Shown here one piece after another: positions 2,144 to 53,622 of a stretch of DNA of 64,000 bases. The stretch is from Myxococcaceae bacterium (GTDB lineage: Bacteria; Myxococcota; Myxococcia; Myxococcales; Myxococcaceae): NCBI GenBank assembly GCA_003818285.1, contig RPRB01000006.1, positions 2,504 to 66,503 on the forward strand. Direction: 5' to 3'. The translations under genes and the position numbers were made by a program. A model generated the notes under the pieces. That model saw nothing but the letters and a program-made list of their open reading frames with translations. It ran no database searches and was not told where the DNA came from. Numbering within the stretch: the first letter of the stretch is position 1; each line of letters opens with the position of its first letter.

Positions 2144-3190
2144 TCAACCGGCTCGCGTGGCTGACCTCCCCTTGAAGCGTTCGACCGAGTAGTCGTGGAC
2201 GACGAAGCCGAGGGCGGCGTCGCCCCGCTCGTGCTCGGCGATCCACGTCTTGCCCTTCAGCGTCTCCCGCCAGAAGCCCCGGACCATGTGCCGCTTCCTG
2301 CGGGCCAGGGCCTGCACGCGGTCCAGGATCGTCATGGCCCGGATCGTCGGGACGGTCAGGGTGACGACAGTGTGCGAGATGAACTTCTTGTAGTTCCCCT
2401 TGGCCACGTAGCCCTTCGAGGGGTGGACTTCGCGGAAGGCGACGGGAAGGTCGTTGATCGTCGAGAGGAACGCCCAGAGATAGCGCAGGTCGCCGGCGAG
2501 CTCAGCGATCGGGTTGTGCTTCTGGATCTCGACCATCATCTGCGAGATGGTGGTCTCGATCAGGGGCGACGGCATGATCCCGACGTGGGGGCTCCTGTAG
2601 TGCAGGTCACCCGTGAGCACGCCCTCGACCGACGCCGTCGTCGTGGCCCGGTCGGGCTGCAGGTGCGAGGCGATCGGCATCTCCCGGTCCATGACCCTCC
2701 AGGGGAGGGGGTGGTCCTCCGAGCACCAGGCGTACGCCAGGAAGTGGGGCTGCGCTTGCTCGAGCGTCTCGTCGTGCGCACCGTAGGTGTGGCTGGCGCA
2801 CTCGATCGCCGTGAAGGCGTAGTCGATCGTCGGGTGCTGGATGCACAGCCAGCCGAGGCGCGCGGGCATCTCCCCGATGGATGGGGGGTCCAGGAACTGG
2901 GTGCCGATCTCGAGGGCCCTGCTGTGCCGGACCCTGGCGTTGTACTCGATCCACGTCACCCGGTGGGGCAGGCGAGACAGGAAGCGCATCGCGTTCAGCG
3001 ACGCAGCCGTGTCCTCTCCGAGCCGATCCGCACCGCCGATGTCCGCGAGGAACGAACTCATCGAGTCGTCCATCACGAACTTGCGGGCTCCGGCCAGCGT
3101 CTCGGCGAACTTGCGCCCCCCGATCAGGTGCCCGTGCTTGGACAGGCACCGGCCGATGATCGCGTCGGCCAGGGTCGGGGGGTTCTTCAA
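2144..3190 (-). CDS. hypothetical protein (348 aa, TTG start)
   Basis: Frame of ORF 2144..3307. GGAGGG lies 4 nt before the TTG at 3190, with a TTGA overlap with the stop of 3187..3699. I recognise no motif. Confidence 0.55.
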   Translation of the reverse strand: MKNPPTLADAIIGRCLSKHGHLIGGRKFAETLAGARKFVMDDSMSSFLADIGGADRLGEDTAASLNAMRFLSRLPHRVTWIEYNARVRHSRALEIGTQFLDPPSIGEMPARLGWLCIQHPTIDYAFTAIECASHTYGAHDETLEQAQPHFLAYAWCSEDHPLPWRVMDREMPIASHLQPDRATTTASVEGVLTGDLHYRSPHVGIMPSPLIETTISQMMVEIQKHNPIAELAGDLRYLWAFLSTINDLPVAFREVHPSKGYVAKGNYKKFISHTVVTLTVPTIRAMTILDRVQALARRKRHMVRGFWRETLKGKTWIAEHERGDAALGFVVHDYSVERFKGRSATRAG

Positions 3191-3699
3191 GCCACCCTCC
3201 TGTGGCTCTGGGTGCGCGCCCAGCTCAGCAGCCCGTCCGGGCCCGGTTGGACGTACCGGCTGCGCGGAACCTCGCCCCACGTGCGCGGCATGGGCTCGTA
3301 GACCCAAGCGATGTAGTCCTTCGGATCGCCGTCGATCCTGACCCGGCGCTTGACCCTGCGGTAGTGCCCGTGGGCTACGCCCTCGAGCCGGTCCATCGAC
3401 TTCAGCATGTCCGCCTCGTCCGGGCCCTTCAGGTCGAAGACCTCGCCCCGGACCTGGGCTCCGCCGGGGTGCCCGTCACAGTTGAAGATGTAGGGGTAGC
3501 CCACGTTCTTCATCCGATACGTCGCCCTGGTCGTCGCCTCGCCCTGGAACGATGCTCGGTCCAAGTGCCAGTGGTTCCCATAACCTCTCATCAAGGTCCC
3601 GTACACAAACACCAGCGTCCGCTGGTCCCGGACCTTCGTCGGGGCGTTGCAGAACAAGATCGTGTCGCGCTTCGTCGTCATTGCCTTCTCCTGTGCCAT
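3187..3699 (-). CDS. gamma-glutamylcyclotransferase-fold protein (AIG2/GGACT-like)
   Basis: VFVYGTLMRGYGNHWHL matches the YGTL(K/M)xG signature of AIG2/GGACT-like proteins. A TGA lies directly upstream of the ATG. Confidence 0.8.
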   Translation of the reverse strand: MAQEKAMTTKRDTILFCNAPTKVRDQRTLVFVYGTLMRGYGNHWHLDRASFQGEATTRATYRMKNVGYPYIFNCDGHPGGAQVRGEVFDLKGPDEADMLKSMDRLEGVAHGHYRRVKRRVRIDGDPKDYIAWVYEPMPRTWGEVPRSRYVQPGPDGLLSWARTQSHRRVA

Positions 3700-3813
3700 T
3701 CAAATTCTCGAACGCCTGCCCGAGCTGGCGGGCCTTCAGCTTGGCGACCACCGCCCTCTCCGCCTCGCGAACGAGGCGGGACATCTCGGTGGCGATGGTC
3801 TCGCTGTCCCACA

Positions 3814-4011
3814 TCAGTCCGCCGAGATCCATCCCAGGTCGACCGGACCGAGGAGGACGCGGATGAAGGTGCCGCCCATGTAGGCTTCGTCGCCAGGGTG
3901 GTGCGGGCGGAACTCGATGTCGACGACCGTCCCGAAGGAGCGGGTGTTGCCGAAGCGGTAGTCGTCGCCGATGCGGAAGTCTGAGTCGTCGCGGTCTGAG
4001 CGGAAGTCCAT
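3814..4011 (-). CDS. hypothetical protein (65 aa)
   Basis: ORF MDFRSDRDDSDFRIGDDYRF... It is preceded by cassette P3 and an AGGAG Shine-Dalgarno. Confidence 0.5.
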   Translation of the reverse strand: MDFRSDRDDSDFRIGDDYRFGNTRSFGTVVDIEFRPHHPGDEAYMGGTFIRVLLGPVDLGWISAD

Positions 4012-4038
4012 GGTCGTGATCTCCTGTTGCCGTTGGAA

Positions 4039-4074
4039 GCACTCTACTCATGAAACCATTTGCAGAGTGTCAAC
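4039..4074 (-). promoter_or_regulatory. early promoter-like cassette P3 (TTGACA-N21-TAGAGT)
   Basis: Minus strand reads GTTGACACTCTGCAAATGGTTTCATGAGTAGAGTGC, ~30 nt upstream of the ATG at 4011. Confidence 0.45.
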
Positions 4075-4086
4075 GCCGGCGAACTT

Positions 4087-4869
4087 TCAGGACGCCGCCT
4101 CCGCCGCCGGGGGAGGGAGCAGGATCGTGCCCTGCGCAGGCTCGGAGGTGTCGGGCTTGATCTCGTCGTCGGTCATCGAGGGCGACCGGGGCGTGATGAT
4201 CAAGTCCTTCGCCAGGTTCGGCGCACCGCGCTGGCGGTGCCGGTAGGCCAGGTACTCGGTCACGTCCTTGCCCGCCCAGCTCTGCTGCAGGGCGACGTCC
4301 AGGTAGGCCGGGTCGAGCCCACAGTCCACGTAGCCCTGCTCGATCGTCTTGAGGTAGGTCTCCGACGGGGGCTGGATGCCTTCGTCGTTCATCTGGTAGA
4401 ACAGGACCCTGTAGACCTTCTTGTTGCCCCGGAGCTTGAAGTAGGACTTCCGGTAGGCCCCGGAGCCGACGCCCTCGTAGCGATCGAGCTTCGCCTCGTC
4501 CCGAGCCGTGATCGACCAGAGCGCACCGGGGCAGCGCGACCCCTCCTTGACCGTCACGTCGGCCACGCCCCGGAAGACCAGGGCGCAGTCGTCGACGTAG
4601 AGGGCGCGCCGGTACTTGGCACCGGGGCATCGCTTCTCCATCTGCGCCGCGTTCAGGTTGGAGCCGTAGGCCCAGTAGAGCTGCCGGACCTCGGGCTCCG
4701 GCCGGGTGCTCCGGACGATGGGCCGGTCCTTCCACACCCGCTCGGGCGTCAGCCGCTCCCTGGTGATGTCGTCGGCCCGGTCCTGCCAGGGCTCGCGCTT
4801 CGGGCCAGTGGTGGTCGGCATGTTGCGCTCGGCCATCCACTCGCTCAGGTTCTTGTATCCTCGTGCCAC
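4087..4869 (-). CDS. gamma-glutamylcyclotransferase (GGCT family) protein
   Basis: LYWAYGSNLNAAQMEKRCPGA matches the Y(F/W)xYGSNL GGCT signature. LDRYEGV holds the candidate catalytic Glu region. Confidence 0.8.
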   Translation of the reverse strand: MARGYKNLSEWMAERNMPTTTGPKREPWQDRADDITRERLTPERVWKDRPIVRSTRPEPEVRQLYWAYGSNLNAAQMEKRCPGAKYRRALYVDDCALVFRGVADVTVKEGSRCPGALWSITARDEAKLDRYEGVGSGAYRKSYFKLRGNKKVYRVLFYQMNDEGIQPPSETYLKTIEQGYVDCGLDPAYLDVALQQSWAGKDVTEYLAYRHRQRGAPNLAKDLIITPRSPSMTDDEIKPDTSEPAQGTILLPPPAAEAAS

Positions 4870-4870
4870 T

Positions 4871-5104
4871 TCACTTCTCCTGTGCCAGTTCGATCAGTCC
4901 AATGTGGAGCAGATCCTTTACAAAGTCGTCAAACGAAGAGGTTCGAATTTCTCCTCCAGTCTGCATGACGATCCGCTCGGCCGCCTGCTTCATCCAGGTC
5001 GTGTCGTCCCCGACGGGGGAGTGGGAGGTCCGGTGCATGTGGCGGACCAGGGCTTCCGGGGTGGCCGCGTCGACCACCCGGCCGTCTACGATGTACGTGG
5101 TCAT
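4871..5104 (-). CDS. hypothetical protein (77 aa)
   Basis: ORF MTTYIVDGRVVDAATPEALV... packed between the amidoligase and GGCT genes (1-2 nt gaps). Confidence 0.5.
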   Translation of the reverse strand: MTTYIVDGRVVDAATPEALVRHMHRTSHSPVGDDTTWMKQAAERIVMQTGGEIRTSSFDDFVKDLLHIGLIELAQEK

Positions 5105-5105
5105 G

Positions 5106-6116
5106 TCAGCGAGCTCCTCGGTTGAAGTGCACCGTCCGGGCGGCGAAGTAGGACTTCTCCGCGTCGTCGGCCTTGATAGCGTCCATCAGCTCATCCAGGT
5201 TGGCAGCCTGCTTCGGGCCCTCCTTCGAGGCTGCCGAAATCTTCAGGCAGAACCTGACCCAGTTGATGACCTTCTCCGCCTCGACCGTGCCCTGGTGGTG
5301 GCGGAACTCGATCGTGCCGTGCTGCCAGAAGGACTGCAGGTTGACCTTCCGATAGCGGTTGCCGTCCCGCATCGCCTGCACACCGTGCCGGCGGAACGAC
5401 TCTGAGCTGCCGTTCGTGTGGTAGGCTGCCGCAGCGACCTGGTCCACAGTCTGGGCGGCCATCAGCATCATCACGTTGAACCGGATCGGCTGGCAGAACA
5501 TGTTGGCCGTCCCCCGTCGGGAGGGGCTCATGAACCGATCGATCGTCGACTCAGCCGAGGAGTAGAGCTGGATGACGTTCTTGAAGAAGTCAGCCGACTC
5601 GCCGCGGGCACCGATGTGGACGTGCAGACCGCACCGGACCGTGACCTTGCAGCCCATCGCCTTGAGGGCGTTGCAGACCGTGCGGACCTGCTGGAACCCA
5701 GCCTCGCCCTGGAGGGGAGGGCTGACCGCCTCAGCGCCGCGGTCGTAGCCGACGGACTGGTCGGTCACGATCTTCCAGTGCCGGCGGAGGGAGTGGTTGT
5801 AGCCCTCTTCGTGGCACTCGACGCCAGCCTCGGTCACCTTCCGGGCGCAGGTCGCCAGGGTCATCCCGGCGGGGCGGACGAACTCCAGCTCGACGCCGAA
5901 GGTGAAGGCGGCCAGGTCGTAGCCGACCGGGGCCGTCGGGGACGTCAGGGCTGACGTCTGACCGAGCTGAGCCCGGAGCCAGTTCAGCCGCTCCCGACGG
6001 TAAGCGATCGTCTCGAGGGGGCCGTTGAGGGTGCGAACGCGGCGGACGCCGCGGGCCTGTGCGAGGGGAACGAGGTCGTTCCATTCCGCTTGAAGCTGAC
6101 GAAGAACCGAAACCAT
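5106..6116 (-). CDS. glutamine-synthetase-like amidoligase (Amidoligase_2-type)
   Basis: FTFGVELEF near the N-terminus and RCGLHVHIGAR match the conserved blocks I recall for the putative amidoligase family. Confidence 0.75.
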   Translation of the reverse strand: MVSVLRQLQAEWNDLVPLAQARGVRRVRTLNGPLETIAYRRERLNWLRAQLGQTSALTSPTAPVGYDLAAFTFGVELEFVRPAGMTLATCARKVTEAGVECHEEGYNHSLRRHWKIVTDQSVGYDRGAEAVSPPLQGEAGFQQVRTVCNALKAMGCKVTVRCGLHVHIGARGESADFFKNVIQLYSSAESTIDRFMSPSRRGTANMFCQPIRFNVMMLMAAQTVDQVAAAAYHTNGSSESFRRHGVQAMRDGNRYRKVNLQSFWQHGTIEFRHHQGTVEAEKVINWVRFCLKISAASKEGPKQAANLDELMDAIKADDAEKSYFAARTVHFNRGAR

Positions 6117-6209: not shown

Positions 6210-6243
6210 CACCATACAAGAGAAAAGTTTGCAGAGTGTCAAC
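6210..6243 (-). promoter_or_regulatory. early promoter-like cassette P4 (TTGACA-N20-TATGGT)
   Basis: Minus strand reads GTTGACACTCTGCAAACTTTTCTCTTGTATGGTG, ~95 nt upstream of the amidoligase ATG. Confidence 0.45.
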
Positions 6244-6270
6244 GGGGGCCGAAGCCCCCGATTTTATTTT
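6244..6270 (+). terminator. GC hairpin plus T-tract (plus-strand oriented intrinsic terminator-like)
   Basis: GGGGGC-CGAA-GCCCCC is followed by GATTTTATTTT on the plus strand. On the minus strand the hairpin has no downstream U-tract. Confidence 0.4.
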
Positions 6271-6615: not shown

Positions 6616-6683
6616 TGTTTCAGTGTCAGCACCATACTGCAAGAGTGTTTGCAGAGTGTTAACAGCAGAGACTTTGCAGAAAA
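6616..6683 (-). promoter_or_regulatory. early promoter-like cassette P5 (68-bp repeat, copy A)
   Basis: tgtttcagtgtcagcaccatactgcaagagtgtttgcagagtgttaacagcagagactttgcagaaaa. On the minus strand this is TTAACA-N20-TATGGT. Confidence 0.5.
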
Positions 6684-6894: not shown

Positions 6895-6962
6895 TGTTTC
6901 AGTGTCAGCACCATACTGCAAGAGTGTTTGCAGAGTGTTAACAGCAGAGACTTTGCAGAAAA
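6895..6962 (-). promoter_or_regulatory. early promoter-like cassette P6 (68-bp repeat, copy B)
   Basis: Identical over 68 bp to 6616..6683. Confidence 0.5.
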
Positions 6963-7273: not shown

Positions 7274-7338
7274 TGTTTCAGTGTCAGCACCATACTGCAA
7301 GAGTGTTTGCAGAGTGTTAACAGCAGAGACTTTGCAGA
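7274..7338 (-). promoter_or_regulatory. early promoter-like cassette P7 (repeat copy C)
   Basis: Identical to copies A and B for 65 bp. Confidence 0.5.
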
Positions 7339-36067: not shown

Positions 36068-36802
36068 TCAGGGCCTCCAGTACCGCGAGACCCAGTAGTC
36101 TTCGCGGATGGTCTCGACCTGCCAGGGCTTCCGTCTGCCGTTGAAGAACATGATGCAGGTCCGCTTCGAGATCTCGCGGAGCTTGCGATAGTCGACCGAG
36201 TAGGAGGCCACCGTCGGATAGGTGAAGCCGTCGCACCCTTCGAGACCAACCAGGTTCATGCTCAGCCACGACTGGTCGGAGCCGAGCCACTTCTTCTTGA
36301 ACGTCTGAGCTGGGCTGGTGGCCGGGTCGAACTTGGACCAGATGAAGTCGAGGTCTCCGGCTGTGAACATCTGCAGCGAGCCGTTGAAGACCTTCGGATG
36401 GTGGGCACCCGCGCAGGCCCAGCCCATGAAGCGGAACTTCTCCGTGGACTCGATCATCGGGGTGATGTCGCGCATGATGATCGCGTCCAGGTCGATCCCC
36501 ATGATGCGGTGCCCGTCCCGGATCTTCATCTGAAACTGGGTGGCCGGATCGTACAGCTTGAGCCGCCTGTAGCACGACGGCAAATTTCTTTTTGTGGCGT
36601 TGGCCAGGTCTGCACCGTCCGACCACAAGGGATGCGTCTCGCAGGCGAGACCAGTCGGATCGTCCGTGACGCAGACGATGCGATGGGGCACCTTCACGTT
36701 GGCCTGCAGAGCCTTGACCATCGCGTTTACGTGCACAGCGGAGTAGGTCGCTCGGACTGGGTTCTTCCAGTCGGTCCACTTCCAGAGGACTATGTGCAGC
36801 AT
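36068..36802 (-). CDS. putative glycosyltransferase (GT-A-like, DxD)
   Basis: Internal ATG with a TGATG junction. Motifs RIVCVTDDP and IMGIDLDAIIMRD (DxD). Confidence 0.5.
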   Translation of the reverse strand: MLHIVLWKWTDWKNPVRATYSAVHVNAMVKALQANVKVPHRIVCVTDDPTGLACETHPLWSDGADLANATKRNLPSCYRRLKLYDPATQFQMKIRDGHRIMGIDLDAIIMRDITPMIESTEKFRFMGWACAGAHHPKVFNGSLQMFTAGDLDFIWSKFDPATSPAQTFKKKWLGSDQSWLSMNLVGLEGCDGFTYPTVASYSVDYRKLREISKRTCIMFFNGRRKPWQVETIREDYWVSRYWRP

Positions 36803-37527
36803 CAGAGGACCCGCACCCACTCGAAGCGAACAGGATTGACAGCGCGATACGGACCAGAGCCGATCTTGGCGCGGAGGACAGGGTTGCGGCGAGCGTGCCA
36901 CTGCGTGTCCTTGCGTCCCCAATCCTTGGTGTTGGCGTCGAAGATGTCATCGGCCCGGAAGACTATCGTCGAAAACGCCTTGGTCGGCATTTCGATGAGG
37001 CCGGCGCCCTTAGCGCAGCGGCGGAAGTTTCCGTCTGACCCGTAGTGCCCAGCGAAGTCTTCGTCGTACCCGCCCATCGACCAGAAGTCTTCAGCTCGCA
37101 TCAGGTAGCTGTTCGGATGCGGCCGTTCGAGCGAGGTACCGTTCGTGAGCACCTGGTTCGGCATGTAATATGTTCCCGATCGGACGTCCATCTGGAAAAT
37201 ACTCAGGAGCTGGTCCCGCGGGACCAGGTGATCCATGTCCGTCAGGAACGCCCACTCGGTCTCAACGTTCTGCATTGCCAGGTTGCGAGCCCCGTCCTGG
37301 TTCCAAGGAATGTTGGGCACCACCCGGTAGAGTTTGGTTCCTATAGGGCTTTGCTGCCCCCACTGCCAGATCGCCGTAGCGGCATCCCACCGGGGGCTCC
37401 CGTCGTCCACCAGCACGACCTTCACCCGATCCTGGAGCACCGGAGGGTAGGCTGCCCACTCGTCCAGGTGACGCTTCAGCATGTTGGGGTTGTCGTAGTA
37501 GGCCAGCACCAGGGTCAGGTCCTTCAT
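36802..37527 (-). CDS. family 2 glycosyltransferase
   Basis: LTLVLAYYDNPNML ... VKVVLVDDGS ... AFLTDMDHLV (GT2 nucleotide-sugar binding and DxD motifs). Confidence 0.8.
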   Translation of the reverse strand: MKDLTLVLAYYDNPNMLKRHLDEWAAYPPVLQDRVKVVLVDDGSPRWDAATAIWQWGQQSPIGTKLYRVVPNIPWNQDGARNLAMQNVETEWAFLTDMDHLVPRDQLLSIFQMDVRSGTYYMPNQVLTNGTSLERPHPNSYLMRAEDFWSMGGYDEDFAGHYGSDGNFRRCAKGAGLIEMPTKAFSTIVFRADDIFDANTKDWGRKDTQWHARRNPVLRAKIGSGPYRAVNPVRFEWVRVL

Positions 37528-38255: not shown

Positions 38256-38395
38256 GAGTCATCGCCAAACCGGGCCAGCAGCGTCCGCCACAGGAGCTCC
38301 CACTGGCTCCGGCTCGTCCACGAGGGCCTGTCGATCCGGCACCCCTCGAAGACGACGTAGTCCAGATAGATGTCGACCGACGGGCGATCGGTCAC
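38252..38395 (-). CDS. small coupled ORF (47 aa)
   Basis: The GTG overlaps the methyltransferase stop (GTGA) and the stop overlaps the next ATG (ATGA). High GC3. My own translation gives VTDRPSVDIYLDYVVFEGCRIDRPSW... Confidence 0.3.
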   Translation of the reverse strand: MTDRPSVDIYLDYVVFEGCRIDRPSWTSRSQWELLWRTLLARFGDDS

Positions 38396-38985
38396 AGCTG
38401 GACCCACCAGTGGGCGACAGACATGAGGTAGTCCTTGGTGGGGCGCTTCACCTCAGCCTGCACCCGATCGCCGAACGCTTCGTGGACGGCCTTGTGCACC
38501 CCAGGCCACAGGTAGTCGTCGCCGGACATGACCGCCCCATCCCTCATCAGGGGCAGGTAGTCGGCGATGTCCTGCTGCACGGCTTCGTAGGTGTGCAGCC
38601 CGTCGATCATGATGTAGTCGATGGACTTCGGCTCGAACAGGACCCGCGCGTCGTGGGAGTACAGCCGGTGGGGCATGATCACAGAGCTGACCGGCTTGGT
38701 GTTATCGTTGAAGACCTCGAGGGCATCCCTGCCCCTCAGGAGGGCAAAAAACTCGGTGTGCTTCAGATCGCCCCCGCCGTCGGTCCAGGGGTCGATGCAG
38801 TGCAGGGTGATGGGCTTGCCGGAGTTCAGGATCTCCACAGCCATGAACGCCGCCGACCGCCCCATCCACGATCCTATCTCCACGAAGGTGGAGGGTCGGT
38901 CCTGCGGGGCGCGCTGCACGGCGTCGACGTAGAGCTGGATGAACGACGCCCATCCGTGAATGCTCTTGTAAAAGTGTTCCATCAC
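38392..38985 (-). CDS. class I SAM-dependent methyltransferase
   Basis: TFVEIGSWMGRSA (motif I) and IMIDGLHTYEAV. The overall pattern resembles the sugar/O-methyltransferase-like Methyltransf_24 family. Confidence 0.75.
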   Translation of the reverse strand: MMEHFYKSIHGWASFIQLYVDAVQRAPQDRPSTFVEIGSWMGRSAAFMAVEILNSGKPITLHCIDPWTDGGGDLKHTEFFALLRGRDALEVFNDNTKPVSSVIMPHRLYSHDARVLFEPKSIDYIMIDGLHTYEAVQQDIADYLPLMRDGAVMSGDDYLWPGVHKAVHEAFGDRVQAEVKRPTKDYLMSVAHWWVQL

Positions 38986-51567: not shown

Positions 51568-52655
51568 CAGAATGCAAAGCTCACGTTGGTGGCTTCGACC
51601 TTGTCGACGTCGAGCGGGTCGTCCGGGTCCGTCTTGAACGTGATCGAGACCGTGATCGTGCCTGGCCCCCTCTTGGTCTCCCCCGTGTTGAAGGTCTTGT
51701 AGACCCCGGCCATCTCGTCCTCCGGGAAGCGCCCGACGTCGTCGTGGTCGACGTTCGGCGGGAAGAAGGCCGGGGCGCCTGCGTAGAAGTCGACGTCGGC
51801 GTTGAAGATGTCGTCGGTCGCGACGTCCTCGGGCTGAACCACCGGCCACGCCTCGTACCCCATGACCTTCAGGTACCGGGCGAACCAGAGCTTGCCCTCG
51901 TAGCTGGCCTTGCCGCCGATCGCCCCCGGACGGGACCAGGTCACGTCGAAGGTCACCACCTTCTGGCCGACGGCGACAGCGGCAGACTTGAGGGCGTCGT
52001 AGGCGATCCAGATCAGGCGCGTGCCCGGACCGACGGTCTGGGTCTTGGACGCTCCGACCTCGTCGTGGCCGGCAGTCTCGGTCAGCAGGAAGATGTCCCA
52101 GTTGAAGCCGGCCAGGCCGATGTCCGTCGCGATCGACATGGCGAGGACGTTCGAGTAGAGCGAGCTGGCATCGTCGGGCGCAGTGTAGTCTGAGCCGCCC
52201 GCTCCATTCCACGAGACTGTGAACGGCACCTCCTGCTCGCCGAACGGATCGAAGCCGGAGGAGCAGATCGCCCCGGTCAGCGTGTCGATGAGGACGTACT
52301 CACCGGCGTCGATCACGTGGAAGGTCAGCCCGGAGAAGACCTTCGACCTGGGGTCGGCCACCGCAGGGAACGCGTGGAACTTGTTGGGGGCTGCGGTGAA
52401 GGCGGGCACGGGGTCGGCTTCGCTGCCCGGAGGGGCAGACACCTTCTCTGGGAACGGGCCGTAGGCCAGGACGCCGTCCTGCCAGCCGAACCAGGGGAAG
52501 TCCGACTGCAGAGTGATGCGGACGCTGGGGTCCGTGCCCCCCGACGGGATGCTCGAGTCGACCTGCCCCATGCCCTGGACGAACAGCAGGAGATACCGGC
52601 CTCCGGGCCAGTTCACGTTCACCAGGTGCTGGGTGGGGTCGTGGGCTAGCGGCAT
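51567..52655 (-). CDS. hypothetical protein (362 aa) in the small-terminase position
   Basis: Internal ATG (MPLAHDPTQHLVNVNWPGG...) coupled at both ends. Beta-rich. No TerS-like HTH recognised. Confidence 0.55.
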   Translation of the reverse strand: MPLAHDPTQHLVNVNWPGGRYLLLFVQGMGQVDSSIPSGGTDPSVRITLQSDFPWFGWQDGVLAYGPFPEKVSAPPGSEADPVPAFTAAPNKFHAFPAVADPRSKVFSGLTFHVIDAGEYVLIDTLTGAICSSGFDPFGEQEVPFTVSWNGAGGSDYTAPDDASSLYSNVLAMSIATDIGLAGFNWDIFLLTETAGHDEVGASKTQTVGPGTRLIWIAYDALKSAAVAVGQKVVTFDVTWSRPGAIGGKASYEGKLWFARYLKVMGYEAWPVVQPEDVATDDIFNADVDFYAGAPAFFPPNVDHDDVGRFPEDEMAGVYKTFNTGETKRGPGTITVSITFKTDPDDPLDVDKVEATNVSFAF

Positions 52656-53332
52656 CAGCGTGCAGTCCGGCCGAAGGTTCGCTTTGGGAGGTAGCTGTCG
52701 GCCCCTGGGGGCTTGCGGAGGGGCTGGACGCTGGCCCGGTGGTGATACGGGCAGTAGGCCAGCGGACGCGCTCGGCTGGCCCCTGAGGCCCGTGGCGCGT
52801 CGCACACCAGCCCGTCGGGCATCGGCCACTGGCAGCGATCGCCCTCGGGGACGGTGGCATCCCCTGCCGAGGTCGCCATCGGACCCTCGAGGCTGGCGGC
52901 TCCCTTGGTTTCCTTGGACTTCGGAGGCCTCACCTGGTCGATCTGCATGGTCCTGGACACAAACACGGTGGTGTTCCCCATCCCCATGTTGACCCTGCCA
53001 GCCCGAGGCTCAGGTCCGGTCTGAGTGTCCTGGGACTTGTAGTTCGCCTTGGCTCTGACCCTGCTGATCTGACGCATCTTCACGTCCATCCGCACGCCAG
53101 TTGCCCTGCCGGCGGTCCTCGGATACTTCTTCTGCAGGTCGAGGCGGTGGATCTTGCCCCCGACGGCAGAGATCGTGAAGGTGACACAGGAGCGGGGGAA
53201 CTCCGCCCGCATCGCCTTGACGATCTTGGCGATCGTCAGGTAGGCCCCGCGCGTGCCCGAGTACAGGAGCTCGAGGTGCGCGATCTCCTGAGAGGTCCAC
53301 CTGCTGTTCGGGGAGTCGGTCTTTGTCATCAT
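52655..53332 (-). CDS. GcrA-like cell-cycle regulator homologue
   Basis: The N-terminal W-T-x-x-E ... ISAVGGKIHRLDL and the C-terminal CQWPMPDG..C ... YCPYH resemble GcrA (WT.E ... KVHRLGL; C.WP.G ... FC ... PYC..H). The start is at 53332 or 53329. Confidence 0.65.
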   Translation of the reverse strand: MMTKTDSPNSRWTSQEIAHLELLYSGTRGAYLTIAKIVKAMRAEFPRSCVTFTISAVGGKIHRLDLQKKYPRTAGRATGVRMDVKMRQISRVRAKANYKSQDTQTGPEPRAGRVNMGMGNTTVFVSRTMQIDQVRPPKSKETKGAASLEGPMATSAGDATVPEGDRCQWPMPDGLVCDAPRASGASRARPLAYCPYHHRASVQPLRKPPGADSYLPKRTFGRTAR

Positions 53333-53622
53333 CAACAGAAGTCTCGTTTTGTTGCGTACAAGTTTAACGACCAATCCTCATGGTCTTTCTACGTTGACAG
53401 CATTCTCGTTTTCCTGACAGCAATTGCATCCTTCTGTTCTCATGACCTTTCTACGTTGACAGGAACTTCGTTTTGGAACCAGCAATTGCATCCTTCTTTT
53501 CTCATGACCTTTTGGGGTTAACAGAAATCTCGTTTTCCGCGTTGCAATTGCATGCTTCAGTTCTCATGGTCTTTTGGGGTTGACAGAAATCTCGTTTTGA
53601 CCCGTAGAAGTTTAACTGATCC
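53331..53622. repeat. 62-bp phased repeat array, block 1 (units R1-R5)
   Basis: Cores start at 53331, 53393, 53455, 53517 and 53579 (GTTGACAGAAATCTCGTTTT and variants). Confidence 0.95.

Follow-up and report, generated by a model that had tools for sequence, protein, structure and literature searches.

A 64,000-nucleotide (nt) stretch of contig RPRB01000006.1 (GenBank assembly GCA_003818285.1, binned as a Myxococcaceae bacterium), hereafter called the window and numbered from its first letter, carries the genome of an uncultured phage, encoding a tape-measure protein, a portal, a large terminase, a head protease, a primase, and a family-A DNA polymerase. It was found that three early genes, for an Amidoligase_2 ligase, a 77-residue protein (p77), and a gamma-glutamylcyclotransferase (GGCT)-type enzyme, follow each other at intervals of 1 nt, and that a second cyclotransferase gene, of the GGACT type, lies in the next unit. 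This arrangement is a compact minimal form of a widespread mobile phage accessory module. The ligase-GGCT pairing is already known; new here are the delimitation of the module and p77 as the dedicated partner of the ligase. Judged from gene neighbourhoods, p77 is probably the most constant partner of this ligase clade, and it appears to have gone unrecognised until now. I give about even odds (roughly 0.5) to the reading that the genes form a mobile cytoplasmic module making and removing gamma-glutamyl-type amides.

The genes and their products

The six open reading frames (ORFs) of the locus are all on the minus strand, and the GC content by codon position (0.77-0.94 at the third position, GC3) favours coding for each of them. 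Lengths are in amino acid residues (aa).

5106-6116, minus strand: amidoligase, 336 aa including a conserved extension of about 70 aa at the N-terminus
4871-5104, minus strand: p77, 77 aa, starting 1 nt past the amidoligase stop codon
4087-4869, minus strand: GGCT-type enzyme (GGCT260), 260 aa, with a GTG start codon 1 nt past the p77 stop codon
3814-4011, minus strand: p65, 65 aa
3187-3699, minus strand: GGACT/AIG2-type enzyme (GGACT170), 170 aa
2144-3190, minus strand: p348, 348 aa, with a TTG start codon at 3190

The initial annotation of this DNA, made from the letters alone, had placed these ORFs, their motifs, and two repeated cassettes (its P3 and P4) where they were found again. It had also named an amidoligase and two different GGCT-fold enzymes, and profile searches now support all three enzyme families above the curated Pfam thresholds, with the motif or catalytic residues kept.

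The amidoligase belongs to Amidoligase_2 (PF12224; E 1.3e-42, 146.8 bits against a cut-off of 22, covering profile positions 4-244 of 245) and matches phrog_2443, "amidoligase enzyme" (E 1e-48). Among 31 aligned sequences with identities down to 24%, residues G74, E76, E78, H165, H167, E270, and R272 are invariant, and they fall in the motifs FGVELEF (residues 73-79), GLHVHIG (residues 163-169), and IEFRHH. The E-x-E, H-x-H, and E-x-R residues expected of an active site resembling those of glutamine synthetase (GS) and GCS2 are present, and the protein, with its catalytic-type residues intact, is predicted to be an ATP-dependent carboxylate-amine ligase. It has about 300 metagenomic homologues, and the nearest ligase of a cultured phage is about 36% identical to it.

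GGCT260 matches PF13772 (AIG2_2; E 1.2e-10, 42.1 bits against a cut-off of 27) and PF06094 (E 7.6e-06, 26.9 bits against a cut-off of 22.8). Its best match in the PDB is human GGCT (E 8e-06): the YGSNL segment (residues 68-72) of its YWAYGSNL motif aligns with the substrate loop of the human enzyme, and E132 aligns with the catalytic E98. YGSNL and LD.YEG are conserved, E132 is kept in all aligned phage homologues, and the protein carries clade-specific N- and C-terminal extensions. GGACT170 matches PF06094 (E 2.3e-19, 70.6 bits against the same cut-off of 22.8) and has human GGACT as its best PDB match, with E106 aligned to the catalytic E82 and a conserved loop (YGTL, residues 33-36, within the motif YGTLMRG). 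The two cyclotransferases are thus assigned to different subtypes, as their closest structures indicate, and both look catalytically competent.

Conservation of the gene order

No close DNA relative was found by megablast of the region against 50,697 INPHARED phage records, and a single-protein pattern scan of IMG/VR gave no near-identical relative. Relatives were reached through a protein database and an alignment-based locus scan, which yielded seven distinct phage contigs of 47-78 kb (L001, L002/L003, and L004-L008) whose ligases are 39-55% identical to that of the window. The order of amidoligase and then GGCT is kept in all seven, with GGCT-type enzymes 44-57% identical. Five of the seven have a p77 homologue, and four have a GGACT-type gene 1-5 kb further downstream. 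A protein of about 160 aa containing DUF6011 is encoded between the GGCT and GGACT genes in several relatives, namely L001, L002, L007, and L008 (e.g. L001:13162-13644), and a DUF6011-like sequence directly follows p77 in another contig, L016; no copy was detected in the window.

A wider census with local hidden Markov models covered 157 loci, of which 80 were the best from IMG/VR and 77 came from GTDB genomes. Loci were counted as evaluable if at least 1.5 kb of sequence was available downstream of the ligase, and GGCT-fold genes were counted within 6 kb of it.

IMG/VR viral contigs: 73 evaluable; p77 just downstream of the ligase in 29; a GGCT-fold gene in 46; both cyclotransferase subtypes in 7; neither partner in 19
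GTDB genomes: 68 evaluable; p77 just downstream of the ligase in 56; a GGCT-fold gene in 7; both cyclotransferase subtypes not seen; neither partner in 11

Several of the bacterial-genome loci adjoin integrases and thus look like prophages. In about 23 loci without p77 or GGCT, nearly all of them viral, a class-II glutamine amidotransferase (GATase)-like N-terminal-nucleophile protein (GATase_4) is encoded directly after the ligase. At least 13 INPHARED records have an amidoligase gene and then a GGCT gene on the same strand, 0.2-1.3 kb apart, and a pattern scan of IMG/VR found at least 580 stretches encoding relatives of the amidoligase. Among cultured or curated phages, the pair already appears in the annotations of Arthrobacter phage Waltz, of Bacillus phage 035JT001, and of many "Ca. 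Heliusvirales" phages from the gut, and the module is present in phages of Proteobacteria, Firmicutes, Actinobacteria, and Bacteroidota. The ligase-cyclotransferase linkage seen in the first reading of the window is conserved far beyond chance, in the seven relatives as well as in the wider loci. What recurs is thus a ligase paired with an enzyme of a type that cleaves gamma-glutamyl amides, be it of the GGCT fold or similar to class-II GATases. When neighbouring ORFs were clustered without supervision, several large clusters turned out to be antisense or alternative-frame shadows of the amidoligase gene in GC-rich DNA, and these were discarded.

The p77 family

p77 lies directly downstream of the amidoligase in 85 of the 141 evaluable loci (56/68 in bacterial genomes, 29/73 in viral contigs). 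The initial annotation had correctly listed the 77-aa gene in its inventory of the unit and had passed over this standing as the most constant ligase partner. The start codon of p77 is at most 30 nt from the amidoligase stop codon in 74 of 102 loci. The association also holds in the other direction: three look-ups that started from p77 led to six places, and an Amidoligase_2 gene is immediately upstream in all six. p77 is recognisable behind the amidoligase of Porphyromonas gingivalis phages as well. The cyclotransferase, in turn, is a frequent third component, found mainly in free phage genomes. One IMG/VR locus (L039:2735-5517) has two tandem amidoligase paralogues followed by p77 and GGCT.

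A word-index homology search with p77 returned the query alone, and HMMER was needed to find its relatives. The exhaustive HMMER search gave a family of at least 127 representative clusters, whose members are stand-alone proteins of mostly 71-100 aa. Their alignment has a conserved core and a C-terminus variable in both length and sequence, and no column is invariant. Only M38, G50, F61, D64, and L65 reach 90% conservation, and there is no invariant Glu, Gln, or Lys. The AlphaFold (AF2) model of p77, which is of high confidence, consists of a beta-hairpin, three helices, and a terminal strand, with a predicted local distance difference test (pLDDT) score of 93.5. A known fold was ruled out for p77: its model has no fold match in the PDB, and its sequence matches no Pfam, NCBIfam, or PADLOC family, a weak match to a PHROG of unknown function being the only hit. 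p77 may act as an activator or a specificity subunit of the ligase.

Comparison with known systems

The 2009 work of Iyer, Abhiman, Burroughs, and Aravind reportedly described Amidoligase_2-AIG2/GGCT neighbourhoods of phages and prophages, as relayed by papers that cite it. Neighbourhoods that contain a GATase-like thiol peptidase or else a cyclotransferase of the AIG2 family are reportedly named in the Pfam text for PF12224. Examples of the described neighbourhood ("Ca. Heliusvirales", Bacillus phage 035JT001, and Arthrobacter Laroyevirus) resemble the window in having the same ligase family followed by a GGCT-fold gene on the same strand, and in their placement in the mobile accessory genome. 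However, the window has two cyclotransferases of different subtypes and has p77 between the ligase and the GGCT, whereas no p77 can be detected in those of Heliusvirales, Arthrobacter, or Bacillus.

Butirosin biosynthesis offers the clearest precedent for making and breaking such a bond to a purpose: BtrJ adds a gamma-glutamyl group to an amine in an ATP-dependent manner and the GGCT-fold BtrG removes it as 5-oxoproline. BtrJ is, however, an ATP-grasp enzyme and not an Amidoligase_2 protein, and the butirosin pathway uses a carrier protein and belongs to an antibiotic gene cluster rather than to a phage. A second parallel is the PafA/Dop/Pup system, in which a ligase is paired with a bond-reversing enzyme and a small protein encoded nearby; PafA is said by Iyer et al. 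to be a GS-like carboxylate-amine ligase. The reversing enzymes of the window are GGCT-fold proteins and not ligase paralogues, unlike those of PafA/Dop. A role of p77 as a Pup-like tag was ruled out by its variable C-terminus and the absence of an invariant residue for conjugation.

The cassette of podoviruses (phiEco32, LUZ24/Bruynoghevirus, PaP3, and RIO-1-like phages) likewise has Amidoligase_2 and GGCT-fold genes among the early or middle genes. It adds a class-II GATase, an ATP-grasp ligase, and a second COOH-NH2 ligase (PF14395), none of which was found among the 36 window ORFs scanned with Pfam (some small ORFs lay outside the scan). The only GATase of the window is of the AsnB type (11938-13308) and belongs to another conserved cluster. 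The amidoligase of the podovirus cassette is about 23% identical to the window ligase over half the length, and the Bruynoghevirus locus (L174) showed no homologue of p77. In the literature, the Amidoligase_2/GGCT/GATase/ATP-grasp cassette of phiEco32, LUZ24-like, and RIO-1-like podoviruses has been called a putative peptidoglycan-modification or superinfection-exclusion module, with reference to Iyer et al. 2009 and Hardies et al. 2013. No published enzymatic or genetic test of Amidoligase_2/GGCT function was found in the accessible literature, in agreement with the view of the first annotator that the association was known from comparative genomics and had no experimental function.

Cassettes and transcription units

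The early region was described at first as one operon. Instead, the layout is that of two units, each headed by a copy of a repeated cassette motif.

6228-6242, minus strand: cassette P4, with the motif TTGACACTCTGCAAA about 110 nt ahead of the amidoligase ATG, putatively an early promoter or a regulatory site
6243-6260: GC-rich hairpin CGGGGGCCGAAGCCCCCG, abutting the cassette, directly upstream on the minus strand
4059-4073, minus strand: cassette P3, where the motif recurs about 48 nt ahead of the p65 gene, heading the second unit

The first unit consists of the amidoligase, p77, and GGCT260 genes behind one cassette, and the second consists of the p65, GGACT170, and p348 genes together with downstream genes, including one for a Lar-like restriction-alleviation protein. 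The hairpin CGGGGGCCGAAGCCCCCG was scored as a plus-strand terminator-like site and may, in the manner of a terminator, set the amidoligase unit off from the small gene before it.

The 15-mer TTGACACTCTGCAAA occurs seven times in the window, where 0.08 copies are expected. Six copies are intergenic, on the minus strand of the early region (54-68, 4059-4073, 6228-6242, 6648-6662, 6927-6941, and 7306-7320), and they head successive early genes. The best -10-like hexamer (TATGGT or TAGAGT) lies 20-21 nt from TTGACA, the distance to TATGGT being 20 nt at the amidoligase copy. A generic sigma-70 scan did not call the cassettes promoters, so that canonical sigma-70 promoters are unsupported; since the scan misses them at this spacing, they are termed promoter-like here. 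The spacing is non-canonical, so that recognition of the cassette may fall to a polymerase that is modified or phage-directed. A protein with a sigma-70 region-4-like helix-turn-helix is encoded at 7940-8275. The copies at 6648, 6927, and 7306 are followed by a further conserved leader of about 45 nt containing CACTCTTGCAGTATGGTGCTGACACTGAAACA, and mechanical ORF calling therefore yields artificial "MVLTLKQRN" N-termini there.

Genes beside the module

The 348-aa protein had been described as free of recognisable motifs and counted with p65 among the genes of the locus. The former holds in that p348 has no Pfam family; membership of the two proteins in the module was not borne out. The TTG start codon of p348 lies behind a GGAGG-like Shine-Dalgarno sequence, and its length and sequence are identical to those of the deposited NCBI protein. 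It belongs to a phage-only family with 91 homologues, some of which add a Cys-rich insert, and its C-terminal region has a conserved H-x-V-R-G-H…W…H-x-R-x-D motif block. Its confidently predicted model (pLDDT 82.3, predicted template modelling score 0.79) has no match in the PDB, and the BFVD matches are uncharacterised phage proteins only, e.g. from Caulobacter phage CcrSC. p348 is probably co-transcribed with the GGACT gene, yet in other phages neither an amidoligase nor a GGCT gene lies near its homologues, and it was rejected as a module component and regarded as a separate phage family. p65 is coding-like (GC3 0.89), has no family in Pfam or PHROG profile searches, and has no homologue in more than 170 loci including all related phages; it was likewise rejected as a conserved component and is an orphan ORF.

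The unit of the GGACT and p348 genes also encodes a Lar-like restriction-alleviation domain (PF14354, E 1.3e-08) at 1643-2134 on the minus strand, which as a predicted function fits an anti-defence or host-takeover character of the early region. A PADLOC search of the six proteins of the locus gave no defence or anti-defence matches. On the other side of the module, the following genes form a candidate modification cluster.

11938-13308, minus strand: AsnB-like amidotransferase
10518-11936, minus strand: C5-cytosine-methyltransferase-like protein, 472 aa
9412-10269, minus strand: thymidylate-synthase-like protein, 285 aa, with no Pfam match and a weak TIGR03283 match
8964-9425, minus strand: MazG/PRA-PH-like protein
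8456-9001, minus strand: dCMP deaminase

This cluster (8456-13308) is syntenic in L001, L004, L005, and L006, often with an added N4/N6 methyltransferase, and is a candidate pyrimidine or DNA (hyper)modification pathway. The AsnB-like GATase had been suggested as a possible link between the module and a modified base. It belongs to this separate cluster, which lies beside the module in four or five close relatives only, and in the 157 wider loci all five genes are absent from the 6 kb around the amidoligase. In L002 and L007 the full module stands in different surroundings.

Among the virion-structure genes of the window, a family-2 glycosyltransferase-like protein (36802-37527, minus strand) and a Methyltransf_24 protein (38392-38985, minus strand) are encoded. 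A weak match to the cell-cycle regulator GcrA (52655-53374, minus strand; E 5.7e-05) is under the Pfam threshold. Because of this match, and since p348 has its closest structural relative in a Caulobacter phage, the bin label "Myxococcaceae" may not identify the true host.

Discussion

As far as I know, the GS-like ligases that have been characterised (GS, glutamate-cysteine ligase, PuuA, and PafA) activate the gamma-carboxylate of glutamate, and GGCT-fold enzymes require a gamma-glutamyl group with a free alpha-amine. By analogy, the ligase with p77 would use ATP in the host cytoplasm to activate a carboxylate, presumably the gamma-carboxylate of glutamate, and would join it to an amine; the product would be a gamma-glutamyl-amide conjugate whose alpha-amino group is free. 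I infer that the cyclotransferases would act on the same conjugate, so that making and breaking would concern one compound: the GGCT-fold enzymes would cyclise it, releasing 5-oxoproline and regenerating the amine, with the GGCT type serving alpha-amino-acid-like acceptors and the GGACT type serving alkylamine or epsilon-lysine-like acceptors. The outcome would be a transient, reversible gamma-glutamylation of a cytoplasmic amine common to many bacterial phyla; alternatively, the gamma-glutamyl group might be a removable protecting group. No N-terminus of the module proteins looks like a signal peptide, and the proteins should therefore act in the cytoplasm. Given the broad host range of the phages, the target is more likely universal than specific to glutathione.

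Several observations speak against such a make-and-break module. A ligase and its antagonist expressed together look futile, with a net conversion of glutamate and ATP to 5-oxoproline. In 61 of the 68 bacterial-genome loci no GGCT-fold gene lies within 6 kb, the ligase and p77 usually standing without one, and the 19 viral loci with neither p77 nor GGCT point the same way; since so many loci are without a GGCT-fold partner, the function of the ligase does not depend on cleavage. The GGACT gene lies at a variable distance and is absent from several relatives. No substrate of any Amidoligase_2 member is known in the accessible literature. The amidoligase gave no PDB sequence match with either a single sequence or a profile, and hhalign against E. 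coli YbdK aligned the G-x-HVHvG motif alone (2% probability). Its GS-like fold is presumed from the Pfam family and from Iyer et al. 2009.

A more novel reading, which I put forward tentatively and at clearly lower odds, takes the conserved unit to be a two-protein enzyme of Amidoligase_2 and p77. p77 would be the obligatory activating or target-selecting subunit, and GGCT-fold or class-II GATase-like enzymes would be interchangeable third components. Together they would make up a system, borne by phages and prophages, for reversible gamma-glutamylation or amidation of a universal cytoplasmic target in host takeover. If true, phage-host conflict would gain a system of a new type for modifying proteins post-translationally or metabolites.

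It is unlikely that the genes serve host takeover independently of each other, with the cyclotransferases degrading host gamma-glutamyl compounds (gamma-Glu-amino acids, gamma-glutamyl-polyamines, or glutathione-derived peptides) to amino acids, polyamines, and 5-oxoproline, and the ligase-p77 pair having an unrelated target. The frequency of ligase-p77 loci without GGCT in bacterial genomes would suit this idea, as would the place of the GGACT gene in a separate transcription unit at a variable distance. One paper on a Planctomycetes phage treats such genes as nitrogen-metabolism auxiliary genes, which is an "auxiliary metabolic gene" reading. However, the 1-nt spacing and the strictly conserved ligase-(p77)-GGCT order in all seven relatives and many distant phages are hard to explain in this way. 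In addition, phages with the module infect Clostridia, Bacteroidota, and Actinobacteria, hosts which to my knowledge are mostly without glutathione.

A split amidotransferase is quite improbable. Here the cleaving enzyme (GGCT in the window, a class-II GATase-like protein in other phages) would not undo the work of the ligase. It would act on glutamine or another gamma-glutamyl donor and free ammonia or an amine as the nucleophile of the ligase, which would amidate an ATP-activated target carboxylate as in AsnB, MurT/GatD, or GatCAB, with p77 as a GatC-like bridge. A ligase with a glutaminase is the canonical layout of an amidotransferase, the 1-nt spacing of the three window genes suggests a complex, and the GATase_4-like and GGCT-fold genes share the position directly after the ligase in different phages. 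Arthrobacter phage Waltz even has GGACT, amidoligase, and glutamine amidotransferase genes in a row, but the presence of both a GGACT and a GATase is a better fit to distinct roles. Moreover, most ligase-p77 pairs of bacterial genomes have neither a GATase nor a GGCT gene nearby, and I know of no GGCT-fold enzyme that serves as an ammonia- or amine-donor subunit.

Remodelling of the cell envelope, namely of peptidoglycan peptides, for superinfection exclusion seems just as improbable for the window. This is the role attributed in the literature to Amidoligase_2 and GGCT cassettes, and the gamma-D-Glu linkage of peptidoglycan is universal, which would match the broad host range of the module. 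However, that proposal, itself purely hypothetical, was built on a cassette of five enzymes, in which two ligases are accompanied by an ATP-grasp enzyme, a class-II GATase, and GGCT, whereas no ATP-grasp, COOH-NH2_lig, or YafJ-type GATase was matched among the scanned ORFs of the window. The module proteins are without signal peptides, and GGCT chemistry needs a free alpha-amino group, but that of D-iso-Glu in the stem peptide is acylated by L-Ala.

Least credible is a part in a nucleobase or DNA hypermodification pathway with the AsnB-like, C5-methyltransferase-like, thymidylate-synthase-like, MazG-like, and dCMP-deaminase genes: the amidoligase does follow the MazG-like/dCMP-deaminase pair in the window, in the four or five close relatives, and in one unrelated 2.5-kb contig, and Lee et al. 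2021 noted amidoligase and amidotransferase Pfam matches near thymidine-hypermodification genes in viral contigs, but the wider loci and the other contexts in L002 and L007 argue against it, as do the three cassette-headed small genes between the two clusters and the absence of a 5-hydroxymethyldeoxyuridine kinase or aGPT-Pplase match among the scanned ORFs (in a scan without profiles dedicated to these families).

Amidoligase_2 with a GGCT or GATase partner recurs in hundreds of phage contigs and many cultured phages, and its carriers include Pseudomonas LUZ24-like phages, which are candidates for therapy, and human-gut phages. The window brings no new chemistry; it offers a compact module with a tight three-gene core. 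As the most constant co-encoded component, p77 gives experimenters a concrete starting point for work on the function of this family.

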